Assembly: GCA_977020255.1 (NCBI GenBank)
Contig: CDROCS010000678.1
Location: 186,001 to 250,000, forward strand
DNA: 64,000 bases
Source of the DNA: Obrimoposthia wandeli
Lineage: Eukaryota
Direction: 5' to 3'
Under the pieces are notes generated by a model that was not told where the DNA came from, did no database searches, and saw only the letters and a list, made by a program, of their open reading frames with translations. Positions 19,985 through 56,260 of the stretch are shown here, piece after piece (the first letter of the stretch is position 1; every line of letters starts with the position of its first letter). A program made the position numbers and the translations under genes.

Positions 19985-20630
19985 GATACTCAAGTTATTA
20001 AGATGTTCAAATCTTGATATAGCAGTTAATTTAACAGGAAAATCTATTCCATGATACTACAATTCATTTTAAAAAGGGATATATTTACTGACACGCTCTC
20101 TGTGCTCAGTAATTACATCCCTTTTAAGGATAGCCAACACACTATACAGGAAGCAAAGGTTATCACTGTTTAGTATGTTAACAATGGAACGTGAAAGTTG
20201 TAGAGATCTAGGTGAAGGAATGTATGAACTCACTTAAATATATATCATGTCAGTGAACTTTGTAAGAACAAAGCTAACATCGTGAATTTTAACTAGAGTC
20301 CATCCACTACTTAACTCGCTATAATTAGCAATTTTTTCATCTAGGTTGTTTCTTCCAATTTCAGTTACAAAATTATCATAGAAAACAGTTGCTTTATGTG
20401 AAATTATTCAAGTTTTAGTCTCCTCATTGACATTTTTAAACTGCACTGTTACGAAAAATTGGACCTTATCCTGTCCTAATTTAGTCACTTCTGATTTTAA
20501 AAGATTTTCAATATTTAAATCTACACCTACGTTAAATAAAATTTCATTTCCTAATGGCACCTTAACTATAACATATTTATTATTTAGGGGATACTCTATA
20601 GTAGCACCGTTTTCTCTACGTTTTTTAATG
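19985..20630 (-). pseudogene. Protein-primed PolB N-terminal fragment (copy D)
   Basis: Close nucleotide match to 42740-43380, including SSGWTLVKIHDVSFVLTKF and SIVNILNSDNLCFLYSVLAILKR. Truncated at about 19985. Confidence 0.85.
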
Positions 20631-21722
20631 GGACCTTATTAAAAAATTGGCCTCTCCTCTTTCTTCCTACAGTCGCTGACAAACCTCCCCCTAATTGAAG
20701 GGGAAGACAACTATTTATATTAACAGTTGAGGTGGAAGGTGCTGCTATTGGACATGCTGCCGATGTTGAAACAATCGCAGCTGATGTAGACGATGCTGCT
20801 GTAGTAAGTACTGCCGCAGTTGTAGATGCTGTATTTGGAGTAGTAGCCGACATTGCCGACGAAAAAGCGGCTGTTGTAAAGGATGATGCTGCTGAAATAA
20901 ATATATTAAAAAATAAATATATTTTTAAAAATTATTACCTCTAGGGTGTGCTAACATCGATATAGGCACTCGCGATGGGGGAGGCATAGCTGTCGTAGCG
21001 GATGACGGCTGTATCACAGTATTTCCTGAATAAAAAAATTTAAATAAAAAATATATAATAACAATAATATATAATTAATTAAAAATAATATATATTTAAT
21101 TACAATTTTAAAAAAGAATCTGAAAAATAATAATAAAATAATACCTAATGAAGGCAATCCAACTGGAGCTGGAATGAAGTCCTCTACATTAACGGAATCC
21201 ATCCAGCTGTCGTCCGTTATCTCGACGAAATCGGATTCCCCGATGGTCTCCAACCAGGAGTTATCGCTCCTTGGCTCCATCTCGAAATCTGACTGGGATT
21301 TGTCGTTCATCCACTTGTTATTCATTTGAGTGGATGGAGCAGAATCAGGAGACGGGAGACCAATCGCAGGACCGTAAACGGGTTGATCGACTGCGACTGA
21401 AATTGGAGCAGGTGCAGCCTGTGAATCGCGCAACAATTGCACGATATCCCTCTTCTTGTGTTGGCCGTGAAACATGATAGGTGAACTCGATGTTTACCGA
21501 AGAAGTCTCGAAACTCCTTCTCCTCCATTGTTCTGCAGAAGGGGCAGACGAAGAATTGAAGCCCGCGAGACTTTGTCCGATAGTAGGTGGACATTATCTC
21601 CATGCAGGACTCTCCTCCATGTGGAGCCGAAGCACCACAATATGCTGGAAACAGGATACAAGTAATCTGAAATAATAAATATTAATAAAGAAATAATAAA
21701 TATAGATTCTTACCATGGTCAT
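20596..21722 (-). pseudogene. Spliced 4-exon Zn-finger/acidic-repeat/Ala-Ser-Thr gene upstream of PolB (copy D)
   Basis: TATA box, then exons 21714-21722, 21145-21666, 20939-21025 and 20596-20891 with GT-AG introns of 47, 119 and 47 nt (phases 0, 1, 1). Contains CPFC...H..H, acidic W/F repeats, QLGGG and RKRR. One frameshift near 21475. Confidence 0.75.
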
Positions 21723-21909
21723 TATTTCAAATAGTCGGGGATTTTAATGAAGAAAGTGTTTGCTTATATACTAAAAGTTATGCACACATGCTCTTTTCCT
21801 AAAAAAAATTGAGAAGGATTGTTTATCTGTTAAATGGTCTAAAAAAATATTTTTTATTCCTCCAATCAAAAGAATTATTTATAATTGAATGAAAATTATG
21901 AATTAGAAG

Positions 21910-22200
21910 AATCGTTTATCTACATGTCAAGTAATGATAAGATAGACTTAAACATTTTTTTATATGCGCAATGGTCACCATGATTACGATATGGACAGCA
22001 AATATCAGTATTTTGGGTTCAATTTTTATTTGTTTAACAGCATGCAATAAATCAGCAAGAATTGTTAACTGGTCTAGCTCCTTTATTGTTTCCTTATTTT
22101 TAGAGCGTCGTTTCAGCTTATCCTTAAGGTACTTACTCCATTTACCTAACACTTTAACTTTGGTTATTGATTAAGCATTAATATTATCTCGTGCATCAAT
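21910..22200 (-). pseudogene. Polinton accessory ORF (C-terminal CCPYRNHGDHCAY motif), 5'-truncated copy
   Basis: Nucleotide homology to 44500-44700. The frames give VLGKWSKYLK... and DICCPYRNHGDHCAYKK. Confidence 0.6.
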
Positions 22201-23627: not shown

Positions 23628-24480
23628 TCATCCTACAACTGCACGTTTGCCTTTAGTTACTTGAATTTCAGTATCGAAAACACTGTAAATTATAATGTTT
23701 GACGGATGTGCCAATCCTTTGAGAAATTTTACGTCAAGTCTTATATTACCTTGTCTCGGTAATTGATGTTAATTTATATCAAAGTCGGGGGCCAATACGA
23801 ATGTAAAAAATGGATAACGCTCATTAAAATCTGTAGATGTTATACCTATGTTTATATTCTTATCCAATAATCCCATGTTTTTAATCAGTGATTGAATATA
23901 CGCAAACATGAACTCATCTTTTTTAAATTTTATAGTGTACGTTTCAACAAATTAGTGTTTCAACTAAGGGAAATTGAACCGACATTGCAATGATCAAATT
24001 CTGAAGAATCTGTTGCACTAGACCAGAGGTTCCCCTTGCGGTAACCCCTTGATAAGATTTACCAAGTTGCGGTGACCCCAAGGATAAAATAATTTATCAA
24101 CACAACAATTTGTTATATTTTAACTACAAAAAATTTATTGGCACAATGTAAACAACTTAAAACAATTAAAATTTTTTTTTAAAAAAAAGACCTTGCTGCC
24201 TTAGGCGACTTCAGGCAAATTGTCAGGCGACCCCAGTTGTGGTCGCGACCCACAGGTTGGGAAGCGCTGCACTAGACCCATCCATTTTAGGATTATGTTG
24301 AAATGTAACCAAAATAAATTTAGGTAATTGCTCATCATCAAAAATAGGTGATTTATAAAATGTTGTAGCGCCTTTAGGTAGTGAATAATGTACAATTACC
24401 CCCGTCTGTATGGATAAACCGTATTTTGAGTTTCCAAATCAACATTATGAGCCATCAATACTGATGGTTCAACTCTTACA
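23628..24480 (-). pseudogene. Polinton major capsid protein, C-terminal part, interrupted by a MITE
   Basis: VRVEPSVLMAHN...YSLPKGATTFYKSPIFDDEQLPKFILVTF...FVLAPDFDINQHQLPRQGNIRLDVKFLKGLAHPSNIIIYSVFDTEIQV. Confidence 0.85.
24024..24269. mobile_element. hAT (Charlie-like) MITE, 246 bp
   Basis: Perfect 8-bp TSD CACTAGAC (24016-24023 and 24270-24277). Imperfect TIRs CAGAGGTTCCC and GGGAAGCGCTG. Confidence 0.85.
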
Positions 24481-26230: not shown

Positions 26231-26274
26231 TTATTCATGAAAAATAATGAAAATTGGTCTCCTTATGGCAGTAT

Positions 26275-26845
26275 CAGCGAGTATTCAATCCTAGCTAGAA
26301 ATGGCCGGGTAGAATGGGGGCAGAATTGGACGAGGACGAGGGGCACCTGTTCACCGACGATTGGGATGGTGTCACTCCCTCTGCAACTCCAACTCCGCAG
26401 TACTTGGCGAGTCAATGTAGCCAGGATGATCCAAGGAGTGAGCAGCGATACCTACCGACTCCGGATAAAATTGAGGTAAATTATTATAAATTAGAATTTT
26501 AATTAATCACATAAGAAGGTGAATTGATGGAGGAAATTTTGGAGGAGGCCACTCTCAGACTACCCGTCGATAGGAAGCAAGCAGCGTTTAAGAAACCTCG
26601 ACGCCATCGGGTCAAAACCCACATGGCTAACCTGCCTGTCATTGAGGTAAATTATTTATATGTTTAAATTTTATTGATGCTTTTTGTTGCAGAACCAATA
26701 CAATTAACTGAGGAAACATGGGGCAAAAACGCCGAAACGAACAAAGCGGGCTGCTGTACGGAAGACAAGGCGCCTTAAAAAGGCAAAATCTTGTCTGCTC
26801 AAATCGACCGAGGTATCGATAGAGCGGCAGGAAAAACTTTCGACA
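26275..26845 (+). pseudogene. Exon-repeat gene family copy 4, head-to-head with copy 3
   Basis: AELDEDEGHLFTDDWDGVT...QYLASQCSQDDPRSEQRYLPTPDKIE, followed by exons homologous to 638-802 and 849-1025. Truncated at about 26845. Confidence 0.7.
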
Positions 26846-27916: not shown

Positions 27917-28528
27917 TTACTTCTTTATGCATTCAACTGCAGAAGAAACTGTCATAACCTCGCTGCATCCAACATTGCTAAGATCGTCATTGAATATCGC
28001 CAGCTTGGCAAAGAAAGTGTTTTCATTCTTCGTCGATGAACCATTTGACAGCAAGCAAACAGTAGAGCACCTGGTATCTTGGCATGGAATATCATGGAAC
28101 ATTTTTGAGTCTGGTAAGTACGCTACACAATCCTGTTTCTGATTAGCATTATTCGGCTCAGCTGAACCCCACAAATTTGTCTCCAGAAATTCGCTGCCAT
28201 CAAAGTGTCTCCAACCCGTATTAGCATTGCCTCTCTCATGCAACAAATCCGTCACATCTGCGAAGTGGGGAATATGACCAAACAAGTCAACGACATCCCC
28301 TAAGTCAGTGGGTCGTGGGAGAACTCCATTCAGGCTGCGACACTTCTTTATGTGCTCACAAATCCCGGCCAAATTATAATCAGCAGCGTGGTAACATTTG
28401 CCTGTTGTGCTGCTCTTCAAGTACGGGGGTACACATTGACCCGCTACACAGACAATCTCCAGAACTATCTTCAACAAGTCAACTAGCAACATCGTATTGG
28501 AAATAATGTCCATAAACAAAATTTTCAT
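27917..28528 (-). CDS. Secreted C-type lectin, exon 1 intact; terminal exon not found
   Basis: Signal peptide and a full CTL domain with WGSAEPNNANQKQDC and FHDIPC. Linker ending ECIK, with a GTAAGT donor at about 27920. Upstream region duplicated at 13560-13860. Confidence 0.8.
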   Translation of the reverse strand: MKILFMDIISNTMLLVDLLKIVLEIVCVAGQCVPPYLKSSTTGKCYHAADYNLAGICEHIKKCRSLNGVLPRPTDLGDVVDLFGHIPHFADVTDLLHERGNANTGWRHFDGSEFLETNLWGSAEPNNANQKQDCVAYLPDSKMFHDIPCQDTRCSTVCLLSNGSSTKNENTFFAKLAIFNDDLSNVGCSEVMTVSSAVECIKK

Positions 28529-30312: not shown

Positions 30313-30457
30313 AGTAAGTGGATGTGTCCTGTCTAATCCACACCCCCACTCCCTCCCCTGTCCTTTAAAACTGTGCATGTGTGTGGAGTGAAATTTCGTG
30401 TAGGTGTGTGGAGTGAAATTTCACTCCACACACATGCATGGTTTTAAAGGACAGGGG
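30313..30457 (+). repeat. Polinton left terminus with a fold-back inverted repeat
   Basis: Starts AGTAAGTGGATGTGTCCTGTCTAATCCAC. 39-bp arms at 30355-30393 and 30419-30457 (2 mismatches). Perfect palindrome GTGTGTGGAGTGAAATTTCACTCCACACAC. Confidence 0.75.
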
Positions 30458-30490
30458 GGGGGCAAAAGTTTTTTTCGCGCCTATTGGCGC

Positions 30491-30706
30491 GAAAGGCTCG
30501 GGACTGGTGTATATCACAGACTTCCTTGGGTGATGGGTGAAAGGCTCGGGACTGGTGTATATCACAGACTTCCTTGGGTGATGGGTGAAAGGCTCGGGAC
30601 TGGTGTATATCACAGACTTCCTTGGGTGATGGGTGAAAGGCTCGGGACTGGTGTATATCACAGACTTCCTTGGGTGATGGGCGAAAGAATCGGGACTGGT
30701 ATATAT
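30491..30706 (+). repeat. 48-bp tandem array (about 4.5 units)
   Basis: Unit GAAAGGCTCGGGACTGGTGTATATCACAGACTTCCTTGGGTGATGGGT. Confidence 0.95.
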
Positions 30707-30744
30707 CACGGTCGGTGGACGTTGGGCGTTAGGCCGGTGGTGAT

Positions 30745-31355
30745 NNNNNNNNNNNNNNNNNNNNNNNNNNNNNNNNNNNNNNNNNNNNNNNNNNNNNNNN
30801 NNNNNNNNNNNNNNNNNNNNNNNNNNNNNNNNNNNNNNNNNNNNNNNNNNNNNNNNNNNNNNNNNNNNNNNNNNNNNNNNNNNNNNNNNNNNNNNNNNNN
30901 NNNNNNNNNNNNNNNNNNNNNNNNNNNNNNNNNNNNNNNNNNNNNNNNNNNNNNNNNNNNNNNNNNNNNNNNNNNNNNNNNNNNNNNNNNNNNNNNNNNN
31001 NNNNNNNNNNNNNNNNNNNNNNNNNNNNNNNNNNNNNNNNNNNNNNNNNNNNNNNNNNNNNNNNNNNNNNNNNNNNNNNNNNNNNNNNNNNNNNNNNNNN
31101 NNNNNNNNNNNNNNNNNNNNNNNNNNNNNNNNNNNNNNNNNNNNNNNNNNNNNNNNNNNNNNNNNNNNNNNNNNNNNNNNNNNNNNNNNNNNNNNNNNNN
31201 NNNNNNNNNNNNNNNNNNNNNNNNNNNNNNNNNNNNNNNNNNNNNNNNNNNNNNNNNNNNNNNNNNNNNNNNNNNNNNNNNNNNNNNNNNNNNNNNNNNN
31301 NNNNNNNNNNNNNNNNNNNNNNNNNNNNNNNNNNNNNNNNNNNNNNNNNNNNNNC
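30745..31355. other. Assembly gap
   Basis: Run of N. Confidence 1.
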
Positions 31356-31680
31356 TTTCACCCAAACCCATCAACTTTCACCCAACACCCTTCGACTTTC
31401 ACCCAACACCCATCGACTTTCACCCAACACCCATCAACTTTCACCCAACACCCATCGACTTTCACCCAACACCCATCGACTTTCACCCAACACCCATCGA
31501 CTTTCTCCCAACACCCATCGACTTTCAGCCATCATCCAAGGAAGTCTGTGATATACACCAGTCCCGAGCCTTTCAGCCATCACCCAAGGAAGTCTGTGAT
31601 ATTTACCAGTCCCGAGCCTTTCGCCCATCACCCAAGGAAGTCTGTGATATACACCAGTCCCGAGCCTTTCACCCATCACT
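31356..31680 (-). repeat. 21-bp array followed by inverted 48-bp units
   Basis: About 8 units of ATCGACTTTCACCCAACACCC, then about 3 reverse-complement 48-bp units. Confidence 0.95.
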
Positions 31681-34819: not shown

Positions 34820-34986
34820 NNNNNNNNNNNNNNNNNNNNNNNNNNNNNNNNNNNNNNNNNNNNNNNNNNNNNNNNNNNNNNNNNNNNNNNNNNNNNNNNN
34901 NNNNNNNNNNNNNNNNNNNNNNNNNNNNNNNNNNNNNNNNNNNNNNNNNNNNNNNNNNNNNNNNNNNNNNNNNNNNNNNNNNNNNN
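34820..34986. other. Assembly gap
   Basis: Run of N. Confidence 1.
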
Positions 34987-35350
34987 CCCATCAACTTTCA
35001 CCCAACACTCATCGACTTTCACTCAACGCCCATCGACTTTCACCCAACGTCCATCGACTTTCACCCAACACCCATCGACTTTCACCCAACACCCATCGAC
35101 TTTCACCCAACACCCATCAACTTTCACCCAACACCCATCGACTTTCACCCAACACCCATCGACTTTCACCCAACACCCATCAACTTTCACCCAACACCCA
35201 TCGACTTTCACCCAACACCCATCGACTTTCACCCAACACCCATCGACTTTCACCCAACACCCATCGACGTTCAGCCATCATCCAAGGAAGTCTGTGATAT
35301 ACACCAGTCCCGAGCCTTTCACCCATCACCCAAGGAAGTCTGTGATATTT
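34987..35350 (-). repeat. 21-bp array (about 13 units) plus 1.5 inverted 48-bp units
   Basis: Same units and order as 31356-31680. Abuts the PolB fragment at 35368. Confidence 0.95.
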
Positions 35351-35367
35351 ATATCACTAGAGATTTA

Positions 35368-37329
35368 GTACGTGATCATGATCATATTTCAGGTGCATTC
35401 TTGGGTGCAGCATGTAATAAATGTAATTTATCTCGTAGATTTGGTAAGCGGCCTACGTAACCAGTACTTTTTCACAACTTAATGAGTTATGATATTAATC
35501 ATATTTTAAAATTTGCAAAATTAAAATGAAAAAGTTATTCAATCATACCCAAATCTAGTGAAATATTCATGGCTCTCAAAATAGAATTATCAACTGGAAC
35601 ATTGAAATTTTTAGATTCAAATCTTTTTACAACAACTAATCTTGAAATATTGGTTAGTTATCTTCCAAGTTCACCGTATACATCAAGATATTTTAGTACT
35701 GATTTGATATCTAGTAAAGGTGTGTTTACTTATGAATAAATTTCCAGTGAATCTAAGTTGTATGAAGATAGATTACTTCCAAAATGCAAATTTCCTTATA
35801 GTGTTACAGATGATAAATATAATAGAGCTCATACAATGTGGACAAAACTAGGTTGCACTAATATTAAAGACTATATGATGGAAAATATGCGTCTTGATGT
35901 ATACTTACTTTGTGATGTATTTTAGGCTTTTAGACAGAAAGTTAGATCTGATGATAATCTTCAGGCTTTTAATTTATTTAGTATTCCCGGTATTAGTTGG
36001 TGTAGTGCAGTAAAATCAATAAAACTTAAAGTAGAATTGATACATGATCCGGAAATGTTTAATCTATTTGAAGCAGGTATTAGAGGAGGTATGACTTTTG
36101 TTAATAAACATTATTGTAAGTCCGATGATAGTACATCACTTCTCTATATAGATGTGAATAACTTATACGGATGGGCTTTAAGTCAACCTTTACCACATAT
36201 GGAATTTAAATGGGTATATGATAATTTTGATGATATTTTGAAGTTAGTTGAAAGTGAAAAGAATTTAAGTAAAACCGTATGGGGTTTTCTTTTTGAAGCA
36301 GATTTACAAATTCCGGATCGTATACATAATAAAGCTGATGACTTACCTATTAGACCACATAAGATGTGTCCACCAAACTGAAAAGCTCCTAAATTACTTT
36401 TAACACATCATGATAAAGAGCATTATGTAATACATTTTCGTTTACTACAATTCTATGTTTTTTTATGCTAAAATCTTAAAAATTCACAGAGCTATTCGGT
36501 TTAGACAAACACCCGTTTTAAAACAATATATAGATTTTAATTCAATCAAGCGGGCAATTAGTGTTAATAAGTTTGAATAGCAGTTTTACAAAGTAATTCC
36601 TTTAAGAATCTTAAGAGGTGGCTTGATATCATATTATGTAATAACGATAAACGGTTTAAAAAATTAGTTTCGAGTCCTTGGTTTAAACGTCATACTCAAA
36701 TAAATGATGATTTAAATTTAGTTTTTATACAGAAACAGTAAATATGTTTAGATTGACCTTCATATATTAGTCAAGCTGTACTTGATCTATCTAAATTACG
36801 AATGTATCAATTACAATATGTTGAACTTGAACGGTATAGGCAAACTTTTAATTGTAGTATTCGAATTGTAGCTATGGACACAGATTCTTTTTTTCCTTGA
36901 GTGTGTGAATATAAATAATGATAAATTACTTAAAGAATTGATTAAGGATGGGTATTTAGATACGAGTAACTATCCTAAAACACATCCCTTGTATTCAACT
37001 TTAAAGTTGTAATTGGAAAATTTAAAGATGAAAGTGAGGGTACTGATTATAATGAATGGGTTTTCTTAAAACCAAAATGTTGTTCACTTAAAAATAAATT
37101 AAGGACTAAGGGTATTTCTTTAAAACAAACTATTTTAAGACATCAAGACTACCTCACTTGTTATGAAAATGAAGAAATTATTAGTGTTAACCAGTCACGT
37201 ATAACATCCGGTTAACCATCAGTTTCATACAACATTTACCTCTAAAGTTGCTTCAAAATTTTTGACGATAAAATGAGATGGGTTAGTAAGAATAAAAGCT
37301 TTGTTTATGGTCATTTTAATTTAACTTAA
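35368..37329 (+). pseudogene. polB: Protein-primed family B DNA polymerase (copy B), 5'-truncated, degenerate
   Basis: VRDHDHISGAFLGAACNKCNL (endonuclease VII-like), PVLFHNL, GIRGGMTFV, LLYIDVNNLYGWALSQPLP, MDTDS, LDTSNYP, GKFKDE, FDDK and YGH. Many stops and frameshifts. Confidence 0.92.
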
Positions 37330-38326: not shown

Positions 38327-38369
38327 CACCACAATATACTACTTGCTTCATTTGCAGAAATATTTCTAG

Positions 38370-39505
38370 TTATCTCAGTTTCAGGAACCACTTAACTGCT
38401 TTATAATTTAATATTAATGGTTCCAATAGTTCCAATAGCTAGTATTTAGATTTGAATGATACTTTGCTTTATGTTAAAAAAAAGTATTAAATCGAGATGA
38501 TACTAATTTAGAGGAAAATACCGATGTAACACCTGTAAATTATCTCTTTAATTCTTTATTTAGTGATGTTATTGTTACCCTTAATAATGTCAAAATTGAA
38601 GGTAGAAATTCTTCCTATGCTCATAAAGCTTTGATCGAAAGTCTATTGAATTATAGTATCGATACTCAAAATACTAAATTGGCAAACATTGGATTTGATA
38701 AAAAGGTTGCATCTAGCAAAGAATGGATTGCAGGATTTAAAGCTTACGAAATGTGGGGGTCTTTGAGATTGAACTTCTTTGAACAACCGAAATATTTAAT
38801 TCCCGGTTTTAATGTACATCTTCGTTTGAAACGTAATAAATGAAATTTTTCTTTGATAAGCACAGAAGTTCTAAAACCTAGACTTGATATTTTGGATGCA
38901 AAACTATATGTCCGAAGAGTTAAAACCGAGCAATCAGTTTTAATGGTACATAATACAGGAATGGGAAAAAACAATGCTTGTTATCCTATTAGAGAAACTA
39001 AACTTATAACATACTCTTTGTGCACGCAAGCTTTAAATAAAGTTCAAATTTTTGGTGATGTAAGATTAAATTCGTTTTAATTTCATTTAAAAAAACTACA
39101 AAGTTTCTAGGAAATTATACGACAGATGTAACTCAATTTGACAATCTTAATGTAGGTTCAGTGACCTTTTCAAGAAATACCGATTATCGCGAAACATATA
39201 AAATAGATTTCGAAGATAACGCCCATGCTTTGACTTATACACAATCTATTATTTGGTATTTGGGTCAACTAGATAAAAATATATACTATAGTATTTCTTT
39301 CACTGACTTTAAAATCAGCTGTCTGTTCTTCTCATATATTTTGACTCTAAACTTTGATATAAACCAATGTCAACTACCAAAATATGGAAATTTACGACTA
39401 GAAATTAAGTTCAATGCAGCTTTAACACATCCTACTACGGTGCTTATTTACGGAGTATTTGATTTGGAAATACAAATCAATAAAAACAGAACTGTCATAT
39501 TATAG
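38370..39505 (+). pseudogene. Polinton major capsid protein (double jelly-roll), frameshifted
   Basis: YLDLNDTLLYVK, VTPVNYLFNSLFSDV, ALIESLLNYS, FFEQPKYLIPG, AKLYVRRVK, YPIRET and GNLRLEIKFNAALTHPTTVLIYGVFDLEIQINKNRTV. Confidence 0.92.
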
Positions 39506-39506
39506 A

Positions 39507-39780
39507 ATGAAGAAAGACACTTTTGAAAATTTATATTTATTAATTTTTATTTAGTTAAATACAAGTACGAGAATCAGCAGAGAAGGTCCTGAGTAATAAA
39601 TTCAATAGAGTTTAGCCTATTGATATGATTCCAGTTTTTCAACCTGAATGATACATTATCAATACTCATACTTCGAATTTACCAGGAGAACATTGGATAG
39701 CTATTTATGTTAGAGAGTGAACAATACATGCACGAGAAACTGTGGAGATTTATGTATTTTATGGTTATTGTTGCAAAACG
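39507..39780 (+). pseudogene. Adenain-type cysteine protease with an internal deletion
   Basis: INTHTSNLPGEHWIAIYV (His at 39691) and TRNCGDLCILWL (Cys at 39741). The Asp region between them is missing. Confidence 0.85.
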
Positions 39781-40058
39781 ATTAATATGTTATAATAATA
39801 AATATAATAAAAACATGTTTTATTTTGATTTGTTTTTTAAAACCCTACAAGATTAAAATATAAGGGTAAAATAATAAAAAAAACTTAAGATACATTTTTT
39901 TAAATACATTTATTCAGCTAAATATCACATGAAGATATATCAGAAAATATAAGGCTCAACCTCAAAAAGTATCGAAATAACAAAAAGTTAGAGTCAAGGT
40001 GCCATAGGGATCTAAAATTTTAAAAACTAAACAAAAAATATCAAAAAATGAAAACCGT

Positions 40059-43000
40059 TTAAATTCGGAAGTGTCCATAAGCCAGGCTAGCGTTCTTTTC
40101 TACCCAAAAGCGCTTGTCGTCATTATTACTCAAAGCGACATTTGTTGACTTATGGGAATACAGTTGATGGGCTCTTGAAATCAATCTAGTTTGCTCAACG
40201 CTTTCAATATACCCAGTATCATAAACTTTCCTGTAGGCCTCATGTTTAAGATTGTTTCTTTCCATACCCTTTTCTCTCATTGAACATGTATTAATAGATG
40301 CATGTAAACTGTATCATTTAAGGCGTAGGAAAATACAATCATCATACGAAACCTGTCCCTTGCTTTCATCCTTAAATTTCCTGATAATATCCTTAGAGTG
40401 AACTCATAGAGTGTAGATGATGGTTAGCGGGATATTTATGGGTATCTAATACGTTGTCCATAAACATTGCCGGTAATAATTGATTATTTAAACTAACATT
40501 TTTACATTCTAAAAAGAAAGAGTCAGTGTCCCCAGCTGCGATTTTGATCTCACAATTGAATTCTTGTCGGTATTTCTCCAATTCTATGTATTGAAGCTCG
40601 TACATTCTGAGTTTAGAAATGTCTAAAACCGTTTGACCTATATAACTCGGTCGATCGAGACAAATACTCTGTTTTCCTAATAACACTGTTACCAAGTCAT
40701 CTGCAATTGTAAAACTACGCTTGAAGTTGTACTAGCTAGTATATGTTATTAGTTTACGCTCATCATTGCAAAACCGTAGACAAAAACATTTCCGCAAGTC
40801 CTCTACAGTTTTTCCAAAGAGACCTTTACTTTTTAACTTGTAAAAATCTCGATCGAATTTGCTAGTGGCCAAATTACATTTTCTAGAATACTTCTCAATA
40901 TAGTCTTTAAACATAAAGTTTTGACTGAAGCTTATAGCACGATGAATTCGAGTAACTTTCGCTCCCAACTTTAAGTAGAATTAAAGAAGCCGACAATGCA
41001 CAACATAATTCAACTTGTCTTCATGGGTTAACAATAATTTCTTAACCTTTGAATTAGGTGGGCATTGATGAACAGGCGCTACTGGAAGATCATCTAATTT
41101 ATCATGCACATTGGAAGGGATTGTTAAGTCAACCTCAACCAAATAGCTGATGTCTGATGAAACTGTATCGACAGTAGCCAAATCTGTCATCAACTTATTC
41201 AACTCTTCCTCATCATAAATCCACTTAAAGTTGGCATGAGGTAGAGGTTGATTAAGCGCCCACCTATACAAATTATTAATGTCGATGTACAGAATCTCCG
41301 TGGATTGATTTTTGACAACATGATGTTTGTTGACAAAAGTCATTCCACCGCGTATACCATAATCATACATTTGATACATCGCGGGATCTTGCAGTAACTC
41401 GATATTAATTTTAATAGTTTTTATTGCTGTTGCCCATGAAAGACCAGGTAAACTAAAAAACTGCATGGGATCTAGCCCACCTTCTGCTAAAAATTTTACA
41501 CGAAAGGACTCAAAAACATCAGCTAAAAGATAAATGTCTAATTTCATATAATAAAGCATATACTCAAAAAGATTTCGACAATTATTCGCCCAAAATGTAC
41601 GGGCCTCATTATAGTCTTGAAGACTTACACTTTCAAATTCAGTTATGTGTGGGATTTCTGTTGTATTTTCTAAATCTGCATAGGTTTTGCAAATTTATAC
41701 AGAAAAATCCCCTTATCAATAACCGAAGCTGGGAACACTGACTGTGTGATTGGCCATGCATTTAAAGATGCCGTTAAATTTTTTTAAGACCCGCTCAAAA
41801 ACTGCAGAGAATCTATGAATCTTAAACTGCAGAATTCAGTATATGCAGTTAAAGATAAATATTTCTCTGAAGTTTGAGGTATACATGAAATTTCCCAAGA
41901 GCTTAATGTACCCAACGCATATTTAAGTATATGATGCAAAACATATCCTTTGAGGTTATGAAACACGATGGGAATTCGTGGTTTTTTATGGAGACGACGG
42001 CCAAGGTTACAAAGGTTGCACGCCGCTCCCAAGTATCACCCCGTAACATGATCGTGATCTCTGACTAACTTAGACTGGGTTCCACACAAATAACATAATC
42101 TACAAGAATTAAAATTAACCCAGTATATGCCTGTCATGATCATTGCTTGATGAGCATTAAGATCATACCACGGTTTGACAATTGTTGTTCCTAATTCTTC
42201 TAATTTTAACATAAAATCTAAAATACAATTTGGACCGGAAAATTTATGATACTGTATAATATTGGGGCCTAAGAATAGTAGTCCTGCCGAAGCCGGTAGG
42301 TGAATACTCTCATACTGGTCGTGCAATGCTAAAATTGACTCAAAATCTGCATACTCCCTGAATTCCACGGGTATGCATTTTGCCCAATCCCTGAATTTTA
42401 AATCCTTATCCTTAGGCATGCTATATAGCGTATTGTCATCAGGATTCAGTGAACATAATGTCAGATGTTTGATGTAAGAGAGCTCGGATCGGAATCCATG
42501 CAAACATCTATGACACCACTTACACCTTATCCTAACCGGTAAGGCTCCATTATCTAAATTTAGAAGACGATCTAAACTGGGATTTGCAGCATAATGGAAT
42601 TTATTATTCTGTTCAAGCAAAATTAAGTTTACCTGAGTCCCCTCATTTTTGCTCCTATAAATTACATCTACAAAAGGATTTTTAAATATTTCTTCATCTG
42701 TTACATTAAATGATATATCAGTATTATATTTGAATACATTAATACTCAAGTTATTAAGATGTTCAAATCTTGATATTGCAGTTAATTTAACAGGAAAATC
42801 TATTCCATGATACTGAAATTCATTTAAAAAAGGGGTATATTTACTGACACGCTCTATATGTTCAGTAATTATACCCCTTTTGAGGATGGCCAACACGCTA
42901 TACAGAAAGCAAAAGTTATCACTGTTTTGTACGTTAACAATGGAACGTGAAAGTTGAAGAGATCTAGGTGAAGGAATGTATGAACTCCCCGAAAGATATA

Positions 43001-43379
43001 TCATGTCAGTGAACTTTGTTAGAACAAAGCTAACATCGTGAATTCTAACTAGATTCCATCCACTACTTAACTCGCTATAATTAGCAATTTTTTCATCTAG
43101 GTTTCTTCCAATTTCAGTTGCAAAATTATCATAGAAAACAGTTGCTTTATGTGAAATTACCCAAGTTTTAGTCTCCTCATTGACATTTTTAAACTGCACT
43201 GTTGCACAAAATTGAACCTTAGCCTGTCCTAATTTAGTCACTTCTGATTTTAAAAGATTTTCAATATTTGAATCTACACGTACGTTTAATAAAATTTCAT
43301 TTCCTAATGGCACCTTAACTATAACATAATTATTATTTAGGGGATACTCTATAGTAGCACCGTTTTCTCTACGTTTTTT
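40059..43379 (-). pseudogene. polB: Protein-primed family B DNA polymerase (copy C), full length, degenerate
   Basis: N-terminal SGW domain, VNVQNSDNFCFLYSVLA, C2H2 finger CHRCLHGF...HLTLC, DFES, RDHDHVTG..AACNLCNL, FHNLKGY, RFIDS, LLADVFESFR, GIRGG, YIDINNLY, LFGKT, GDTDS and NDDKR...YGH. Confidence 0.95.
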
Positions 43380-44283
43380 GGTGGGACCTTATTAAGAAAT
43401 TGGCCTCGCCTCTTTCTTCATACAATCGCTGACAAACCTCCCCCTAATTGAACCGGAAGACAACTATTTATATCAACAGTTGTCACAAACGCAGCTGAGA
43501 TAGAAGGTGCTGCTATTGGTGATGCTGCCGATGTTGAGGCAATCGCAGCTGATGTAGTAGATGCTGCTGTAGTAAGTGCTTTCGCAGTTGTAGATGCTGC
43601 ATTTAGAAAAGTAGCCGACATTGCTGATGAAGAAGCGGCTGTTGTAAAGGATGATGCTGCTGAAATAAATATATTAAAAAATAAATATATTTTTAAAAAT
43701 TATTACCTCTAAGGCGTGCTAACATCGATGTAGGCACTCGCGATGAGGGAGGCATAGCTGTCGTAGCAGATGACGATTGTATCACGGTATGTCCTGAATA
43801 AAAATAAAAATAAAATATATATAATTACAATTAAAAAATAATAATAATAAAAAATACCTAATGAAGGCAATCCAACTGGAACTGGAATGAAGTCCTCTTC
43901 CTTTATGGAATCCATCCAGCTGTCGTCCGTTATCTCGACGAAATCGGATTCCTCGATGGTCTCCAACCAGGAGTTATCGCTCCACTGAGGCTGCTCTATC
44001 TCGAAATCTGACTGGGTGATATTTTCCATCCAGTCATTGTTCGAGAATTGGGTTGCTGGTGCCAACTCCTCAAAATCTTCTTCGGAGATGTCGTTCATCC
44101 ACTCATTGTTAGTCATTTGAGTGGATGGGGCAGCAGCAGAATCAGGAGCCGGGAGAGAAGGACCAATGAGAGAAGGTCCATGCGGAGCCGAAACACCACA
44201 ATATGCTGGAAAGAGGATACAAGTAATCTGAAATAATTAATATTAATAAAGAAATTATAAGTATAGATTCTTACCATTGTCAT
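43349..44283 (-). pseudogene. Spliced acidic-repeat gene upstream of PolB (copy C)
   Basis: Same exon/intron layout as 20596-21722. The Zn-finger part is deleted, four W-x3-I-x3-DF repeats remain, and there is a premature TGA at 43418-43420 (GGA in copy D). Confidence 0.75.
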
Positions 44284-44499
44284 TATTTCAAATTGTCGGG
44301 GATTTGAATGAAGAATATGTTTGCTTATATACTAAAATTTATGCACACATGCTCTTTTCCTATTGGATTAAAAAATTGAATTTATCCCTCGACTGAGAAG
44401 GATTGTTTATCTGTTATTGGTTAAAAAATATATTTTTATTCCTCCAATCAAAAGGCTTATTTGTAATTAGTTGTAAAATTTTAATAATGAATTTCTCCA

Positions 44500-44992
44500 A
44501 TCAGAAGAATTGTTTATCTACATATCAAGTAATAATAAGAAAGACTTAAACATTTTTTATAAGCGCAATGGTCACCATGATTACGATATGGACAGCAAAT
44601 ATTTCGTGGAATTTTCAATAGATGATCACGTGAAATATTTAAAGTATTCAACCTCAATTTGGTAAAATATTTTTTTAAAGTCTTATATTTTTTGCAATCC
44701 ATTTCATCTAAAACATAAAATAATCCATTTTCTATATCAAAATTAGATGTTATTGTATCAAAAATACATATTTCACAAAAAGCCTTATGTCCTTCTTTCC
44801 ATTTTAATAAATAAAAATAATTTGTGAAATATACATTTGTAAATTTTTTCTTATAATCTAAACTCCTTTACGGTATATATACATGAGATATGAAATGTAA
44901 AGGTTGCATATATCCATAATACATAATTCTTTTATAATATAATCTTCATTTTTGTTAATGAAAGCCTCAAAGTCTATGATATATTCTTGCAT
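44500..44992 (-). pseudogene. Polinton accessory ORF, DEDD-nuclease-like N-terminus and Cys/His C-terminus
   Basis: MQEYIIDFEAFINKNEDYIIKELCIMD ... GLFYVLDEMDCKKYKTL ... ICCPYRNHGDHCAYKKC, across frameshifts. Confidence 0.55.
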
Positions 44993-45089
44993 AATTACCC
45001 AAATATGTAGCAAATCCCTTTGCTTATAATGAATAAAAATAAAATCCATTAATCAAAATTTATAAAAATTTCAAAGTACTTAAGATTCA

Positions 45090-46343
45090 TTTTTGTTCGT
45101 TAAGATTGGTACATATTTTCAAGTCTCTATGAAAGTCTTCATTGGGATCTTCCTCGTCGATATCCCTACGTCTGAGTGTTATTGGAGTAAGTGACACTGA
45201 CTCCTTATATTTCTTTGGTCACCCTGATATTTTTTCGGCTGCTACCGGTTACTGTGCAGCAATTGGCCTTCACTGAGTTTTGGCAGTAGTTACCGTAACC
45301 TTTTCAGAGAAGGTGGAGCTGATGTCTATGGTCCTGACGAATAAATTGGTGGTTTTGTAGCCTTCCTCTTCCGCGGAGCTTTCATCAGTTTCTCCTGGCC
45401 CGTTTTAATTGGCCCGTCGTCCACTGGATATGGGAGAATATTCTGCTGGCCAATCACCGCCTCAGAAGAAATGAGCATTGTGGTGCAACATTTTTCTCCA
45501 AGTCTCCTCAGTTATATTTAAAAGACCCTGCATAAAAAAATATTAGTAAAATATTATATAAAATGTAATTAATAAAATATAATTAAATATTCAAAAAATT
45601 ACCTCAATAATAGGACAAAGAATTTTATCCTGATGCTCCATTTATGTCTCAGTAGACTGTAGGACATTGGATTTCATCTTTCTAATGCGTTTGGTTCTGC
45701 GCATTGCCGCTTTCTGCTTCCACCTCCCTAGAATTTTATTGGCCTCTCTCAGCTATTCTTCAATAAATGTTGCAGGTTCCTGCAAAAAACATCAATAAAA
45801 TTTAAGTTTATTTTTAATATACCTCAATAACAGGCAGGTTTGCCTGTTTCACCAACTTGGCCTTCTTCCTATGTACCGTCTGGGTTTTGACCCGATGTCG
45901 TTGCGGTTTCCTCACTACCGCTTGCTTGCTATTCACGGGTAGGTTGACAGTTGCCTCCTCCAGAACTTCCTCCGATAACTCGGCTTCCTTGATAAATAAT
46001 TAAAATTATTAGCTAATTTAAAATAATTTACCTTGATATTATCCGGAGTCGCTATGTAATGATGTTCACTCCTTGGCTCCTCCTGGCTGCGTTGACTCGC
46101 TAAGTACTGAGCCTCTCCGCCGTGGTCACTGACGGTGCATATTCGAGTTGAAGTTTCTGAAAATGAAATTGAAAAAAAAATTAAATAAATTATTAGACTA
46201 ACCTCATTCACCACCGACGAGTCTTGACTAAGTAAGTCAATGTACTGCGACGGTGATGGCGTTTGCTTCTGTACTGGAGAGAGATCCGCATTCAGTTGAA
46301 CCTCCATCTCTGCATCCAAATTGACGTTTCTGTAGAAAGACAT
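45090..46343 (-). pseudogene. Exon-repeat gene family copy 5, with intact promoter and exon 1
   Basis: ATTGG box and TATATAAGG upstream. Exon 1 MSFYRNVNLDAEMEVQLNADLSPVQKQTPSPSQYIDLLSQDSSVVNE, then four exons homologous to copy 1. Stops and a small deletion. Confidence 0.75.
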
Positions 46344-47396: not shown

Positions 47397-49488
47397 TTCA
47401 TATAGAGATGTGTAATGGTGAATATACTTAGATAATTATATAACCAATACTAGCTATACATGTACAAATATATACGTATATTTATGTGTACAATATAATA
47501 CTCCCAAATATACATGTGTACAAGATATTACTTACAAATATACGTACATGTATGTGTACCATGTAATTCTTACAGATATATGCATATGCTTGCGAATTAA
47601 TGATTCTTATATAAATTATATCATTCTTACCCATCTAACTAAGTCAAATGTGTTAATAAAATGGATACTAATAAGAAAACGTTTTATTAAATGATTGCAA
47701 CAAAAAACTATATTAAAGAAGTTTACAAGCATGATTATAATATTAGGTTAATTAATATTCTTAAATAAAACATCAATAATAATACATGCTAGACAAATAT
47801 TGATAGAAGATAATTGATGGAGCATAGCTTCTTTCAGTAATAGTAGTGAATATATATATCATCAATAGTTCGCATAGCATGTGATGACAATGATGAAAAA
47901 TACGTATTTTTCAAGCATTCTGCTTAACTGAAGTCCCGTGGCAATATAATAATGAATAAAATTAATATTTTATTTCAGGAATTCCAGTATCGAAAATATT
48001 TCCTCTACTGTGTAATATTTCTGCATTAATATTTTGTAAAATTGAAATAAAAGTAATAATTTAAACTTAAATCTAAGAAACATTAAACAACATGTAATCA
48101 GAGATTTCAGTTACAATTCGACATTCATTTTTTAATATTTTTTAATATTAATTGATGTCTGGCTCTTTAACGCCTATGTTTTTGTATTAAAATAGCCATA
48201 CATTTGACAATACAACACAGCTTTGGATGTTCAGTGGTATTTTTGTGATTTGAGAGACAGTTTTAGTTGTTGTAGCAGTGTATTTTAGTGTATTTTGCGA
48301 AAATGTATATGTTTACCAACAGTAACCACACATACATGGATTATAACATTATAATTGTAGAATAACATACATGTTGTATAATTCATGTTTGATTTGTATT
48401 TCCCCCATATGGCGGTAGATTGTGTGATTTAGAATGTTCTGGAATGTTGCATAAATATCAGAATATTTGAGTCCTCAGAACTACGTGATCTCCGAAGATC
48501 TTCCAATGAAATATATCAAGCAGTGTGGATTGAGGTTACATCATAATTAATTTACTCTTTTCTTGCAGTATATTTTTAGTTACAACTTAACAAATATTAA
48601 CAAAATTATAATTTAAAGAAAACAGCTCCATTATCGAAACTTTTGAAAGACTATTCATTTACACATATAAAAATGAAATACAATATTCAGCTTGTAACAA
48701 CATTTAAATTACTAAAATACAATTGTAATACATCAAGATTTGATTTTCAAAACAACTTTCTGTTTAATATTCGAGAATTTCATTTCAATCGCTTGCAAAC
48801 GTGAAGAGTCTATTTTCATTATTACTATTGTTATTATTCCAACATATTTATCTTCTAAAAGTGTTAAAAATTCCTTTTAAAATCTATAATATCAGAAGAT
48901 GTTAAAATTATACTCCTCACTACAGGTAAATTTACAGTTTTTTCTACTTTTCAGTTAATCCACTTTTTATCCAGTTCAATATTTGACGACCTTTATTTTA
49001 CGGTGTAATTCCAAAGGTGTAAATGAGTAGGTATGCGTAAATGGTGTTACTATGCGTCTGCTGAGTTGCCAAAACGTATGTGGGCTTAAATATATTTTAA
49101 ACGAAGATTAAAGAGCAATTTGAAACACACGAGAAACAACAGGTTAAAACTCGTAGCTTAGGAGTCTTAAAATTGCAGATGATGAAACAATCAAAATCGC
49201 AAATTAAAAAAATCCTTTATAACTCAACAATAATTGGTGTTAGGTTTGGTAATTTTTATTAATTAATTTACTTTATTTACAGATTCATTAATATACTTTC
49301 ATCAAAAATCAAATTACATGCAATTATTTTCCCATAAATGCCATGATTGAAATGAATACACAGCATCTTATTTCAGCTACATGTTTTGCAATACAAAATA
49401 AAGTGTTATGATTGGCTTATTTTAAACTCATTCAGAACTTTGCCAGCTGAGAATCATAATTTGGTTTTGTGGCATTATTTCAGCAGCG

Positions 49489-50056
49489 ATGTTGTTATTT
49501 GACTTGTCGAAGATAGTTCTGGGGATCGTCTGTGTGGCGGGTCAATGTGTACCCCCGTACTTGAAGAGCAGCACAACAGGAAAATGTTACCACCTGCTGA
49601 TTATAATTTGGCCGGGATTTGTGAGCACATAAAGAAGTGTCGCAGCCTGAATGGAGTCCTTCCACAACCCAGTGACTTTGGGGATATTCATGTGTTGTTT
49701 GGTGCGCTCAAACATTTCTCAGGTGTGACAGATTTGCAGTATGAGAGAAACAATTCGAAAACTGGCTGGAAACACTTTGATGACAGTGAATTTATGGAGA
49801 CTAAGTTGTGATTCCCATGAGCCAACAACTTCAATCCGGGTCAAGATTGCGTAGTACGTATCGGTAAATTATTTTCTTTACATGATGGTTTCTGTAATGT
49901 TGTTGATTACGACACAGTTTGTGTTTTGTCAACCGGTTTAAAATTTCCGAAGGTGGGAAAGTTCATTGCTGATGCAACGAAATTCAATAACGATGTCAAA
50001 GAAGCTGGATACAGCGATACATTAACAGTGGCATTTTGGATTGATTGTTTAGTGAA
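49489..50056 (+). pseudogene. C-type lectin family pseudogene (exon 1)
   Basis: 5' part nearly identical to 13663 and 28528 (MLLFDLSKIVLGIVCVAGQCVPPY). Frameshifts and a TGA before the EP.NN...QDC motif. GTAAGT donor at 50057. Confidence 0.8.
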
Positions 50057-50356: not shown

Positions 50357-50892
50357 TTTATCTAAAACGTTTTGTTGTTGTTGCAATAATATTGTCATTT
50401 AGTATAGCTTTTACAATCTCTTACTCTAGATAATAATACATGAATATGTTTGGTATACTTAAATTTAATTTGAATATTATTATTATTATGAAAAAAATTA
50501 TATACAATGAGTACAATTTAATTAGCGCTGAGTGAAATGGAAATTTTAAAAAAAATGGAAAAAATGTTCGTGTTAAAAACAAAAGAAGGATGCAAAATAT
50601 ATTGTAAAGGCAAATAACAATGTCTACAAAATAAATAAAATTAATAATGAATGGAATATAATTTGCGTAGATTGGGAGTGAAATTTTGAACGTTAAGATG
50701 TGTGAAAAAGATAATGTTTGTGTTAAAAAAGCACAAAAGAAGTATGAAAAACATAACAACAACTTTAAATATTTATCAATCAGAAGACTTTTCTCAATAA
50801 TGGCATTGACATGCCCATTGTCAAATGTTCTATCAAATATGTTATTGTCAAACATAAAGTTTGTAGACTCTTTGGCCTATTTCATTTCCTCA

Positions 50893-51736
50893 ATGCTGCT
50901 GCCTAAATTAGTTCTTCTAATTTCTGTTCTCAGAGCCTTGGTTCGACCTTGCCAGTCTCCGTATTCAGAAAAGAACGGGAAATGTTTCTTCAAGAATCCT
51001 TCACTAATCGAAGGTATTTGTGCACATGCGAGATACTGCGCTGATATCCATGGTAAAGTCGTATCTCCAAGCGATATTCCCAATGTATTGGGACTGTATG
51101 GACCCATGCCCTTCTATGTGGACGTCAGTGACTTGTTGATTGAACTGTCCAGGTCTAATAATGGCTGGCGACATTTTGATGGCCAGGAGTTGGTTGATAC
51201 TCAATGGTGGCATCCGAGAGAACCATCGTCCGGAAATGCTGAAGATTGCGTTGCATACCATGTTCTATATAAGAGTTTGGTTGATGTACCCTGTGATTTG
51301 AAAAGAAGTAATATCTGCGTATTGAGCAATGGCAGTGTCCCAAATCTAAACACGATGTTATTCCACTCAGAAACTGTATACTTCAATAACGATGATAAAG
51401 GTGGATGCTTTGAGACTTTTGTAGTGGCGTCTGCGAAGGAGTGCGTGATGCAGTGAGTGAAGTTGTATTATTATTTTAGTTATATATGCAATATTGATTG
51501 ATTAATAAATCGAGAATAATTACCGAAATTACTGGAATCTCAGTCTGGCATGAACACTGAATCACCTTCCACTGTTGTGCAGCTGCCTGGTCAACAAGTA
51601 CCACTGTCGGTCGGTCTACTTCAATGCTGGCTCCAAGCAGTGCTTCTTGTCGCTATTTATGGACGCAGCGCTGCCCAGCTCTCTCAATGGGCTGGGTCAC
51701 CAGTTCACGAGACTTGCCCCAACCCGGGAGATCTAG
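50893..51736 (+). CDS. Secreted C-type lectin + PAN/apple-like protein, 2 exons, 237 aa, apparently intact
   Basis: Signal peptide MLLPKLVLLISVLRALV and CTL with WHPREPSSGNAEDC and LVDVPC. A 130-nt phase-2 intron (51453-51582) joins CLVNKYHCRSVYFNAGSKQCFLSLFMDAALP in frame to the stop at 51734-51736. Confidence 0.85.
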
Positions 51737-54067: not shown

Positions 54068-56260
54068 TTAGAATTCTTCTGGAATTATCTTTTTATCTAT
54101 TTCTTCTGCCTGTGGAATCTCATTATAGTTCACTTTAGGCCATCTTATCATTAAAATGCCTCTCTTGAACTTTTCCTTCTCTTCCTTCAATTCCTTCATT
54201 GTATATAGGTTTGGTGTTGATTCTTCCTTGTATTTTAGTGGAATCTTTGGATGTCCTGTATTTAGTATTTTTGCATAGTCTCCTGGACTATCGTTATCAT
54301 CGTCGTCGGCGTCTCGGCGGTTTCTTGGTTCTCGCGTCATGGTTCTGGCTTGATTTTGCTTCTTCTTGAGGGCTCGTAACTCATTCTCGTAATGAAGGTG
54401 CAATAAATATTTCGCTAAAAATGGAAAACATCCAATTATAAGCTGCCAGGTGAATCCGGTTATCCTGTACAAACTATATGTAGACAACACCTGAGCTATA
54501 ATTACCTGTACAAATTTAATTATAACATAAATAACTATGATACCTGAAAATAATTGTCCTAAAACAAAGAATTTTCAACACATCTTCTTAAGTGTCTGAT
54601 GTGCTGCTTCCTTGAAATGACTTGGCGACAATATTATATCAAAATTCGTATATCTAGCTCCTGGTGGTATTGCACGATGTACCATTTCCGTAAGTACTCT
54701 GGCCCTTCTTACTGGAAACATTTTTTCGTTCCAGGCGCTTTTAAATCTTTCTCATTGTAAAAACCTGCATTTTCAATATTCCTTATTGATTCAAATTTAA
54801 TTTTTCCTTAAAGTGTCGTCATTTTTATCATCTCTGGAGTTGCTGTTCGCTTACGGTCAGGTAAGGTTATCCATAGATCACCCGTCATCTGATATTCAGG
54901 TCCCATTATATTGGAGCAGCTGATTTCTTTAGTTGGAGTGTCTTTAGGAAGTATCATTCTCGTGATTGGTACAAAGAGTGATTTTAAGTTATACGTCACT
55001 GGCAATTCACTTGTGCATCGTTCTGTTTTTCTCAACTGTATCGCTACTTTTTAACACTTATAAATATACAATACTTCTCTTATGGTTTTAGCAAATACTC
55101 TTTCATCTAAAGGTAATAGTGGTGCTACCATGTCTGGATTTGTAATAGCTAGTGCTGACTTAGTTCTTATGATTTCCTTGTTTAACTTGCAGTCTCTCTC
55201 AACCATCATCTGATATAACTGTTCCATTTGAATCAATCCTTTATGATAATAGAAATCAATTTTATTATTAAAATACGTATGAAGCTGCATATTGCTAGGT
55301 TTTAACTTGGTTCCGGCCATCGCTATTGATTCTTTCGACAAAACTATTATAGGATAGTTTGTAGTACTAACAGTCATTCCACATCGCGCTTTATTTCCTT
55401 TTTTGATAAATATCAACCATTCTTCTGCTGATGTTGCCATTAACAGTGTAGGTGTTGGCGTCGTAGGAATTGGTCCTGTTTTATTATGGAATCTTTCTCC
55501 ACCTTTTTTATACAGGAAACCTTTTATTTTATTAAATTTGATTTCTTTCAAAAATATTAACGAGCATTATTTTGGATCCACTTGATACACAATTGTAGAT
55601 TCACTGGTATGACAAGATGTATCTGTCATTCTACATTCTGGATACTTCATCGTTCGTTTTGTAGTTTAGTTTTATCAAAAATGGCTGTCCATGTTTTTAA
55701 TTCAATCTGGTAAGTCACATATATTATTAAGGCTGTTATTTTGGTACCACGCACATTTTTTGTTCCTCCACTGCAAGTTCTAACATCCCATCGTTATCCT
55801 ATTCTCGTAACTGTTTTATATAGTCTCACACCAACTTTCGCATCGGGTGCGTAATTCTAATCTATTTCTATTTCCTTGTTCGAAATGCGTCTTCGCAATC
55901 TCTCGGAAAAATCTTGTGTGGTTTATACGATGTGGTAAGTGTGATTTCCGACAAGAAACCTCTATGACCACAGTAAAATTCATGATAACTTGAATGAACT
56001 GAACATTTCTTCACTTGTACTTGTAGTTTATCAATTTCCTGATATACGAAATAGTTTTCTACACATTTAACTTCTAAATTTGATGGTTGTGATTCTGGAC
56101 TGTCTTTGCTGTCAAGCAATGAATACTTCTGCCCCATCTTTGGTATGCTACAGTCGTACGCTACTAGTGCTGATGCATGTGTTGGGGTTTCTATATGAAA
56201 CTACTGGATAGATCCTCGGATGGATGCCTCTAACGTGAGTTCTATAGAAGTAGGGCTTGC
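54068..56260 (-). pseudogene. Chuvirus-like (class III, gB-type) envelope glycoprotein, frameshifted
   Basis: LVAYDC (56150-56167)...YSLLD...VQVKKCSV...FYCG, CGMTVSTTNYP, YFNNK..LY..M..RDCKL..LAITNP...EVLYIYKC, CTSELPV, ISC, AGFYNEKDL...MFP, then a TM region and cytoplasmic tail. Confidence 0.85.

Follow-up and report, generated by a model that had tools for sequence, protein, structure and literature searches.

The pPolB of Polinton/Maverick elements (Eupolintoviridae; Alpha adintovirus) carries a terminal protein (TP, D1), a vOTU domain (D2), an exonuclease and a polymerase in one protein, according to the available portions of PMC11161782 and PMC8502044. For this TP-vOTU-PolB layout the same portion of PMC11161782 puts forward the hypothesis that the OTU-like domain releases the terminal protein from the polymerase, and it describes the trimming of the adenovirus pre-terminal protein by the viral protease. 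Intact Mavericks of vertebrates and nematodes are reported to have core genes without introns in the accessible text of PMC8097293 and 10.1101/2022.07.12.499685, the first of which gives 287 copies as the maximum per vertebrate genome. Adenovirus pTP and Ad-pol (E2B unit) are made from spliced mRNAs with upstream exons, as stated in the available part of PMC11304566, and −1 frameshifts have been predicted, as predictions only, for the adintovirus penton and hexon-adenain in the accessible part of PMC11071296. The locus described here is best read as a decayed copy of a high-copy Polinton whose polymerase is likely encoded in one continuous frame on a four-exon spliced mRNA, with a −1 offset in this copy that results from a one-base loss; we give this reading a probability of about 0.86.

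The sequence under study is a window of 64,000 nt from Obrimoposthia wandeli (assembly GCA_977020255.1, contig CDROCS010000678.1, positions 186,001-250,000 of the forward strand), and positions are given below within this window, with the strand in brackets. The element is a Polinton/Maverick of the Alpha adintovirus type. Other copies show an element of about 16.3 kb with integrase and ATPase genes and with weaker matches for protease and capsid; of 10 copies, 3 have inverted termini about 16 kb apart, and in one copy a target duplication of 6 bp could be read. Analysis of the proteins encoded by other family copies revealed a retroviral-like integrase (PF00665, E 1.8e-12), which was not found in the window, and a packaging ATPase above the cut-off (PF04665, E 4.8e-6). 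The adenain-like protease stays below the cut-off (PF00770, E 0.036), with the His, Asp, Gln, Cys motif order recognised by eye, and the major capsid match was obtained on a fragment (PF21738, E 0.018). The minor capsid gene is presumed from its motif and the gene order. The polymerase domain matches PF03175 (E 1.4e-8), and the best fold matches of the polB model are the PolBs of adintovirus and MELD (E 7e-24 and 3e-19).

The copy in the window is truncated after part of the major capsid gene. The convergent genes for this partial capsid protein and for the cysteine protease of the same decayed copy lie at 38345..39782 (+) and were located by tblastn with the natural frames of other copies, while polB itself (40059..43659, -) contains eight stop codons in aligned segments, some of them beside frame changes, and two frame changes. 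Upstream of polB is a neighbouring gene of the element (44517..44998, -), without a Pfam match, which we take by eye to be exonuclease-like. At the left end of the element, a second gene (45100-46300, -) likewise contains several short AT-rich stretches that resemble introns. It shows about 70-75% identity to the matching gene in most copies, compared with about 92% for polB, and a far lower depth in the DNA runs, and we read it as an accessory gene that has been swapped or that evolves fast. A TATA-binding-protein-like gene (PF00352, E 7e-12) is found next to the ATPase in a family copy (L088:4178-4612, -), and a copy of this gene is present in the window at 2937-3341 (+). Across the whole genome, at least 4,345 copies match the 28 flanking bases exactly at the polB run described below, a number far above the vertebrate maximum reported in the available text of PMC8097293.

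The window also holds remains of other elements. Fragments of a second, more distant Polinton family were detected at 23278-24479 (-) and 25027-26686, with a capsid and a protease about 45-53% identical to those of the main family, and tandem repeat arrays of 48 nt and 21 nt, partly inverted, occupy 30443-31679 and 34960-35393 beside a Polinton terminus at 30313. Interrupted frames of a Bel/Pao retrotransposon (DUF1759, Peptidase_A17 and integrase zinc domain) are located at 6149-10030 (+). Also interrupted are the frames at 54071-56200 (-), which adjoin a retroelement-like protease frame and match a chuvirus-like fusion glycoprotein (Monjiviricetes; PF24664, lowest E 1e-17). C-type-lectin-like frames, with weak Pfam matches below the cut-off, are repeated at 13157-13672, 27920-28528, 49452-49810 and 50671-51453, and three of these four are 83-95% alike.

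The initial annotation of this stretch had proposed that the exons upstream of polB give an abundant accessory protein, and that PolB is made as a minor fusion to it by a programmed −1 ribosomal frameshift. The sequence features from which it started are present in the window copy: the heptamer A_AAA_AAC lies at 43373..43379 (-), phased as X XXY YYZ to the upstream frame and within the codons for a basic NLS-like patch; QLGGG (43450-43436, -) and then RKRR stand just upstream; and the PolB frame opens after TAA TAA, with stops at 43394-43389 (-). This frame does lack an ATG for a long stretch, although the first one is found 123 codons past the run and not after about 100 codons, and it does overlap the last upstream exon in the −1 frame in the window copy. 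The overlap does not, however, characterise the family, since 26 of the 30 loci most similar to the window copy have one more base in the A run, which places the upstream exon and polB in one frame, and four are short (the window copy, the 99% identical locus L002 and two others).

Genome-wide, with exact flanks on both sides, 4,158 copies are continuous and 187 are one base short (about 96% vs 4.3%), and for the all-A forms of the run the counts are 1,554 and 122 (7.3%). A search allowing any spacing from 4 to 10 returned 4,386 matches, and the first 100 listed are all continuous. Open reading of 96-132 codons upstream and through the site was seen in 14 of 20 continuous copies that we fetched, and in one of ten further copies a single frame of 1,212 codons stays open all the way between the acceptor region of exon 4 and the stop of polB. 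Copies with simply continuous frames, which the initial annotation had named beforehand as evidence against its own scheme, are the rule, and neither the heptamer nor the −1 overlap is conserved (187 vs 4,158 copies, and none of eight near relatives). With about 96% of the genomic copies reading straight through, the programmed −1 frameshift for PolB has to be abandoned. The exons that had been ascribed to an accessory protein make up the N-terminus of PolB. The peptide that had been predicted for the shifted product is encoded by the continuous copies, but in frame and without any shift.

The −1 offset in the window copy is a one-base loss in the A run of a decayed copy and not a recoding signal, and the frameshift is not real. 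Five other A/T runs of six in polB gave 175 observations, of which 11 (6.3%) show a one-base loss; for fifteen runs of five, such losses number 2 among 446. The rate at the other runs of six is comparable to that at the run under study, so that both the 4.3% overall and the 7.3% of the all-A forms correspond to ordinary decay. In the window copy the leader frame is also closed by a stop at 43420-43418 (-), between QLGGG and RKRR and 39 bases before the heptamer, and therefore no ribosome on this copy gets to the heptamer in the upstream frame; this stop is present in 5 of the 30 most similar loci. A second, truncated copy of the polB gene in the window (19986..22005, -), which kept its Cys/His domain (21445-21666), has the short spacing at the run too. 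To compare the two forms we studied 20 of the 122 exact short copies and four others. An unbroken polB was found in none of 17 short copies and in one of 27 continuous copies, and no difference was seen in the breaks per 1,000 codons (medians 5.5 and 4.8; p 0.30), with 6 of 50 copies dropped for having fewer than 300 codons. In the contigs of the DNA runs the extra base accounts for only 2-22% of the depth, which fits poorly with the copy counts; these depths come mainly from very short contigs and do not amount to a copy count, and we tentatively attribute the low value to very short, high-depth contigs that start inside the run.

One-base losses in A runs are a typical error of long reads, and the loss rate measured here rises with run length, so that the short run could be a sequencing or assembly error and not a genomic mutation, with the same conclusion on the frameshift. 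We consider this improbable, since the spacing and the leader stop are both found again at locus L002, and the window copy is decayed in many other places.

In the preferred reading of a spliced, continuous polymerase gene, the polB gene begins with a TATA-like box before the start codon (44325..44331, -), recognised by eye and presumably functional, a similar motif being found in the second copy in the window and in the relatives L092, L093, L095 and L105; TATA-like boxes are common to element genes and to the relatives' polB. Predicted exon 1 (44275..44283, -) consists of 9 nt encoding Met-Thr-Met, with the ATG in 33 of 40 aligned copies, and is followed by predicted intron 1 (44228..44274, -; 47 nt, GT..AG, phase 0, 85% A+T), which has the same length in 50 of 53 copies. 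Predicted exon 2 (43858..44227, -) measures 370 nt here and encodes acidic Trp-containing repeats; the window copy is without 249 nt near 44170 that encode a zinc-finger-like Cys/His domain in most copies. Four acidic repeats with a conserved Trp, under purifying selection, can be distinguished in this exon at 43870-44110 (-), and by eye they resemble activation or partner-binding motifs. In 54 copies, predicted intron 2 (43794..43857, -; 64 nt, phase 1, 94% A+T) was found with 25 different lengths, which cover all three phases. Predicted exon 3 (43707..43793, -) is symmetric (phase 1 to 1) and has 87 nt, as in 50 of 52 copies, and after predicted intron 3 (43660..43706, -; 47 nt, phase 1, 94% A+T) predicted exon 4 (40059..43659, -), broken in the window copy, would encode an Ala/Ser/Thr-rich linker, the GG motif, the basic patch and the TP-like, OTU-like, exonuclease and polymerase domains. 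All three predicted introns show GT..AG ends and a T-rich acceptor and keep the exon frame. A 59-nt intron that might have joined the two frames of the window copy was rejected, having 69% A+T compared with 85-94% for the three introns and a weak acceptor, and being unnecessary.

The lengths of these parts were taken between anchors, with 52-55 of 71 copies scored per element and copies without an anchor left out, and they replaced a first multiple alignment that was too gappy for indel counts. Exon 2 keeps its phase in 40 of 53 copies, whereas intron 2 takes all three phases, and the leader part of exon 4, although it occurs in 18 lengths, stays in phase in 45 of 52 copies; this comparison bears on intron 2 only, as introns 1 and 3 hardly vary in length. 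Variants common to at least five copies, taken as having mostly arisen during replication of the element, revealed that the leader exons are under purifying selection. The pN/pS of exon 2 is 0.28 for such variants vs 0.95 for singletons (p 1e-5; 68 of 80 copies used), that of exon 3 is 0.36 vs 1.15 (p 0.047), and that of the first 300 polB codons after the run is 0.25 vs 1.02 (p 5e-5). Selection on substitutions was not detected in the exon 4 linker (pN/pS 0.88, p 0.59), and the length steps of three in this linker could partly reflect its triplet-based repeats. No joint at the predicted introns was found among the joints listed (15 of 619 and 15 of 96) for contigs of five DNA runs, which are silent on expression and cover polB introns and exons alike. 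The proposal of the initial annotation that the upstream gene is spliced and joined to PolB has strong DNA evidence in its favour, and a spliced, in-frame PolB leader is likely.

To explore the origin of the leader, we searched with a 445-residue frame and obtained 108 longer proteins, 17 of them 33-44% identical. Several related proteins have a small Cys/His domain at their start, together with a low-complexity stretch, and these lie in the polymerase frame. A profile made from the N-termini of the relatives' single-frame PolBs alone matches exon 2 with E about 1e-13 among 20,622 frames, and eight Cys, His and hydrophobic positions are invariant across ten aligned examples of the domain. By these profile and alignment matches, the Cys/His domain of exon 2 is homologous to the start of single-frame PolBs. 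The model of the domain (mean pLDDT 78) displays a helix, three strands and a helix. Its comparison with Pfam gave no match for the first member and a best E of 0.02 in single members, that with PDB sequences gave E 0.06 or worse, and the matches in the Atlas are under 0.9, none above noise.

A single-protein search for related loci found none, and an alignment search gave 80 and 1. Among these 81 related loci, eight are near relatives with upstream DNA, and the other 73, too distant or without the region, stand outside the intron count. In four of the eight, one frame leads from the Cys/His domain into PolB, and the remaining four have 2-4 short AT-rich leader introns, all in phase 1 (12 of 12), with no stop in any exon and with intron ends set by hand after an automatic caller; the eight derive from a small number of metagenome records and should not be counted as independent of one another. 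The −1 overlap occurs in none of them. Locus L101 carries, in frame and at the matching place, a GG motif and Pro-Lys-Lys-Arg-Arg-Arg. In L094 (130-423) the PolB leader contains three consecutive phase-1 exons of 66 nt, two of them near-duplicates each with Gln-Thr-Gly-Gly, an exon duplication that multiplies the candidate protease site.

These data also bear on the view that the upstream exons form a separate accessory gene or stay unspliced, with PolB starting at an internal ATG or at a non-AUG codon. The splice junctions are indeed predicted from DNA alone, and core Maverick genes are described as intronless in the available text of PMC8097293 and 10.1101/2022.07.12.499685. The first in-frame ATG, however, follows the TP-like domain; in continuous copies exon 4 has no stop between the acceptor and polB, and it is with the domain of exon 2 that the single-frame PolBs begin. 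We hold this view to be distinctly improbable and keep to a spliced leader that belongs to PolB itself.

The terminal-protein-like domain D1 (43013..43358, -) is predicted to form a sheet and two helices, with a Ser-Ser-Gly-Trp loop before the last strand; it was assigned by setting the model against the description in the accessible part of PMC11161782. The OTU-like domain D2 (42580..42970, -), with its candidate catalytic Cys and His, was assigned by motif and position, the Cys being invariant in 60 aligned proteins and the His motif present. The first in-frame ATG of the PolB frame lies past the TP-like domain. Ahead of this domain, a GG motif and a basic patch are found, as the initial annotation had noted. 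QLGGG (43436..43450, -) is by its motif a candidate site for the element's own cysteine protease, and adenains cut after (L/M/I)xGG. Among 12 near relatives with a leader, 8 have a (Q/M/L/I)xGG or xGxG motif in frame within 70 residues ahead of the TP-like domain, roughly tenfold the frequency of such motifs elsewhere in those proteins; overall the motif is there in only 16 of 87, and GG-type motifs are also present in a small core-like protein of the element. Cleavage at QLGGG by the protease is plausible on these motifs.

We propose that three short AT-rich GT-AG introns would be removed by the host spliceosome, and that one spliced mRNA would give one protein of about 1,440 residues. This protein would comprise, in order, the Cys/His domain, the acidic repeats, the Ala/Ser/Thr linker, the GG motif, the basic nuclear-localisation patch, the terminal protein, the OTU-like protease, the exonuclease and the polymerase. 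The adenain-like protease of the element is predicted to cut after the GG motif, so that the leader would be removed and the basic patch would stay on the terminal protein, by analogy with the trimming of the adenovirus pre-terminal protein. The OTU-like domain might then free the terminal protein from the polymerase, following the hypothesis in the available part of PMC11161782. This predicted cleavage by the protease, which the initial annotation had put forward as well, survives without a frameshift.

The origin of the heptamer itself is simple. A_AAA_AAC is a working eukaryotic −1 slippery heptamer, and the loss of one base from the in-frame Pro-Lys-Lys-Arg run gives it automatically in the right phase, so that this phased heptamer belongs to the short form. 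The 4.4-kb locus contains 30 XXXYYYZ heptamers in all phases, and the reported one is not more than expected by chance. A 3' stimulatory structure was not found by stem-loop folding, without pseudoknots, of the 90 nt downstream, where 92 of 200 shuffles fold as well (z 0.01). These results indicate that a one-base loss in an in-frame lysine run makes a perfect slippery site, and that recoding claims in repeats need copy counts.

Slippage could also be imagined in the opposite sense, with continuous all-A copies making occasional −1 slips out of the PolB frame into a leader-only product. There the run makes up an all-A heptamer in phase, and a stop follows immediately in the shifted frame. About half of the copies, however, break the all-A heptamer by a synonymous change (a Pro codon change inside the run in about 56, counted by hand, of the first 100 matches listed of 4,386), no 3' structure was found, and the all-A heptamer is not kept in relatives, which makes such slips very improbable.

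For a phylogenetic view of the short form, a tree was built from 620 bases after the run in 66 copies, 4 of 70 having been dropped for short overlap. The short copies are scattered over this tree, where their label needs 16 changes, compared with 18.8 when the labels are shuffled (45 of 500 shuffles are as low), and the tree is poorly resolved, with 44 of 63 inner branches open, so that small short-form clades may exist. A programmed −1 frameshift restricted to a minority subfamily with short spacing, with PolB as a minor fusion, could appeal to the phased heptamer, to the 187 short copies, to one cluster with 6 short among 8 rows (support 88/84) and to the −1 shifts proposed by prediction for adintovirus penton and hexon-adenain in the available text of PMC11071296, through which the earlier scheme is not wholly without precedent, but we regard it as largely refuted and very improbable, given a short form at the background level of loss, 16 changes on the tree, no unbroken polB among 17 short copies, no 3' stem-loop in folding without pseudoknots, a stop upstream of the heptamer in the window copy and no overlap in near relatives.

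Beyond the single locus, we tentatively suggest, as a possibility that we hold to be rather doubtful, that an animal Polinton lineage makes its replicase as a pre-protein, with a spliced leader of symmetric phase-1 mini-exons that are gained, duplicated or skipped in frame and trimmed by the element's own protease. If this were true, Polinton replication would be tied to host splicing and to the timing of the viral protease, and it would foreshadow the spliced, protease-matured pre-terminal protein of adenoviruses. Polintons are taken to be intronless both in descriptions and in searches, so that a spliced leader would escape notice; the annotated polymerase would then lack its first 330 residues and any start codon ahead of the terminal protein. 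In the papers covered by our literature search we came across no description of spliceosomal introns within the polymerase gene of a Polinton, and the available portions of PMC12220804, PMC11244446, PMC10748475 and 10.64898/2026.10.13.758929 contain nothing on PolB introns.

Compared with known systems, the protein described here resembles the Polinton pPolB in joining a TP-like and a candidate OTU-like domain to an exonuclease and a polymerase, and differs from it by about 330 extra N-terminal residues and by a gene on four predicted exons. Unlike the intronless core genes of Mavericks, in the accessible text of PMC8097293 and 10.1101/2022.07.12.499685, three introns are predicted here in the pPolB leader. 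Retroviral gag-pol and coronavirus 1a/1b are programmed −1 frameshift cassettes. The likeness of the window copy to them is the phased A_AAA_AAC, but its heptamer is not conserved and lacks a 3' structure, its upstream frame is closed and its downstream frame is broken. With the adenovirus E2B unit, the locus would share replication proteins made from a spliced mRNA and the trimming of a pre-terminal protein, both of them predicted here. Mastadenoviruses have a first coding exon of three codons, and exon 1 here also has three, which may be chance, since the near relatives L101 and L105 are without such an exon. In contrast to adenovirus, terminal protein and polymerase form one frame here, and no alternative acceptors were seen. 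Finally, the introners of dinoflagellate eupolintoviral elements, as described in the available part of PMC12166617, are likewise intron-like sequences inside Polinton-type elements. Those introners are mobile, intron-making insertions, whereas the predicted introns of the present family are fixed in thousands of copies, are confined to the polymerase leader and have a phase that is common to distant relatives.
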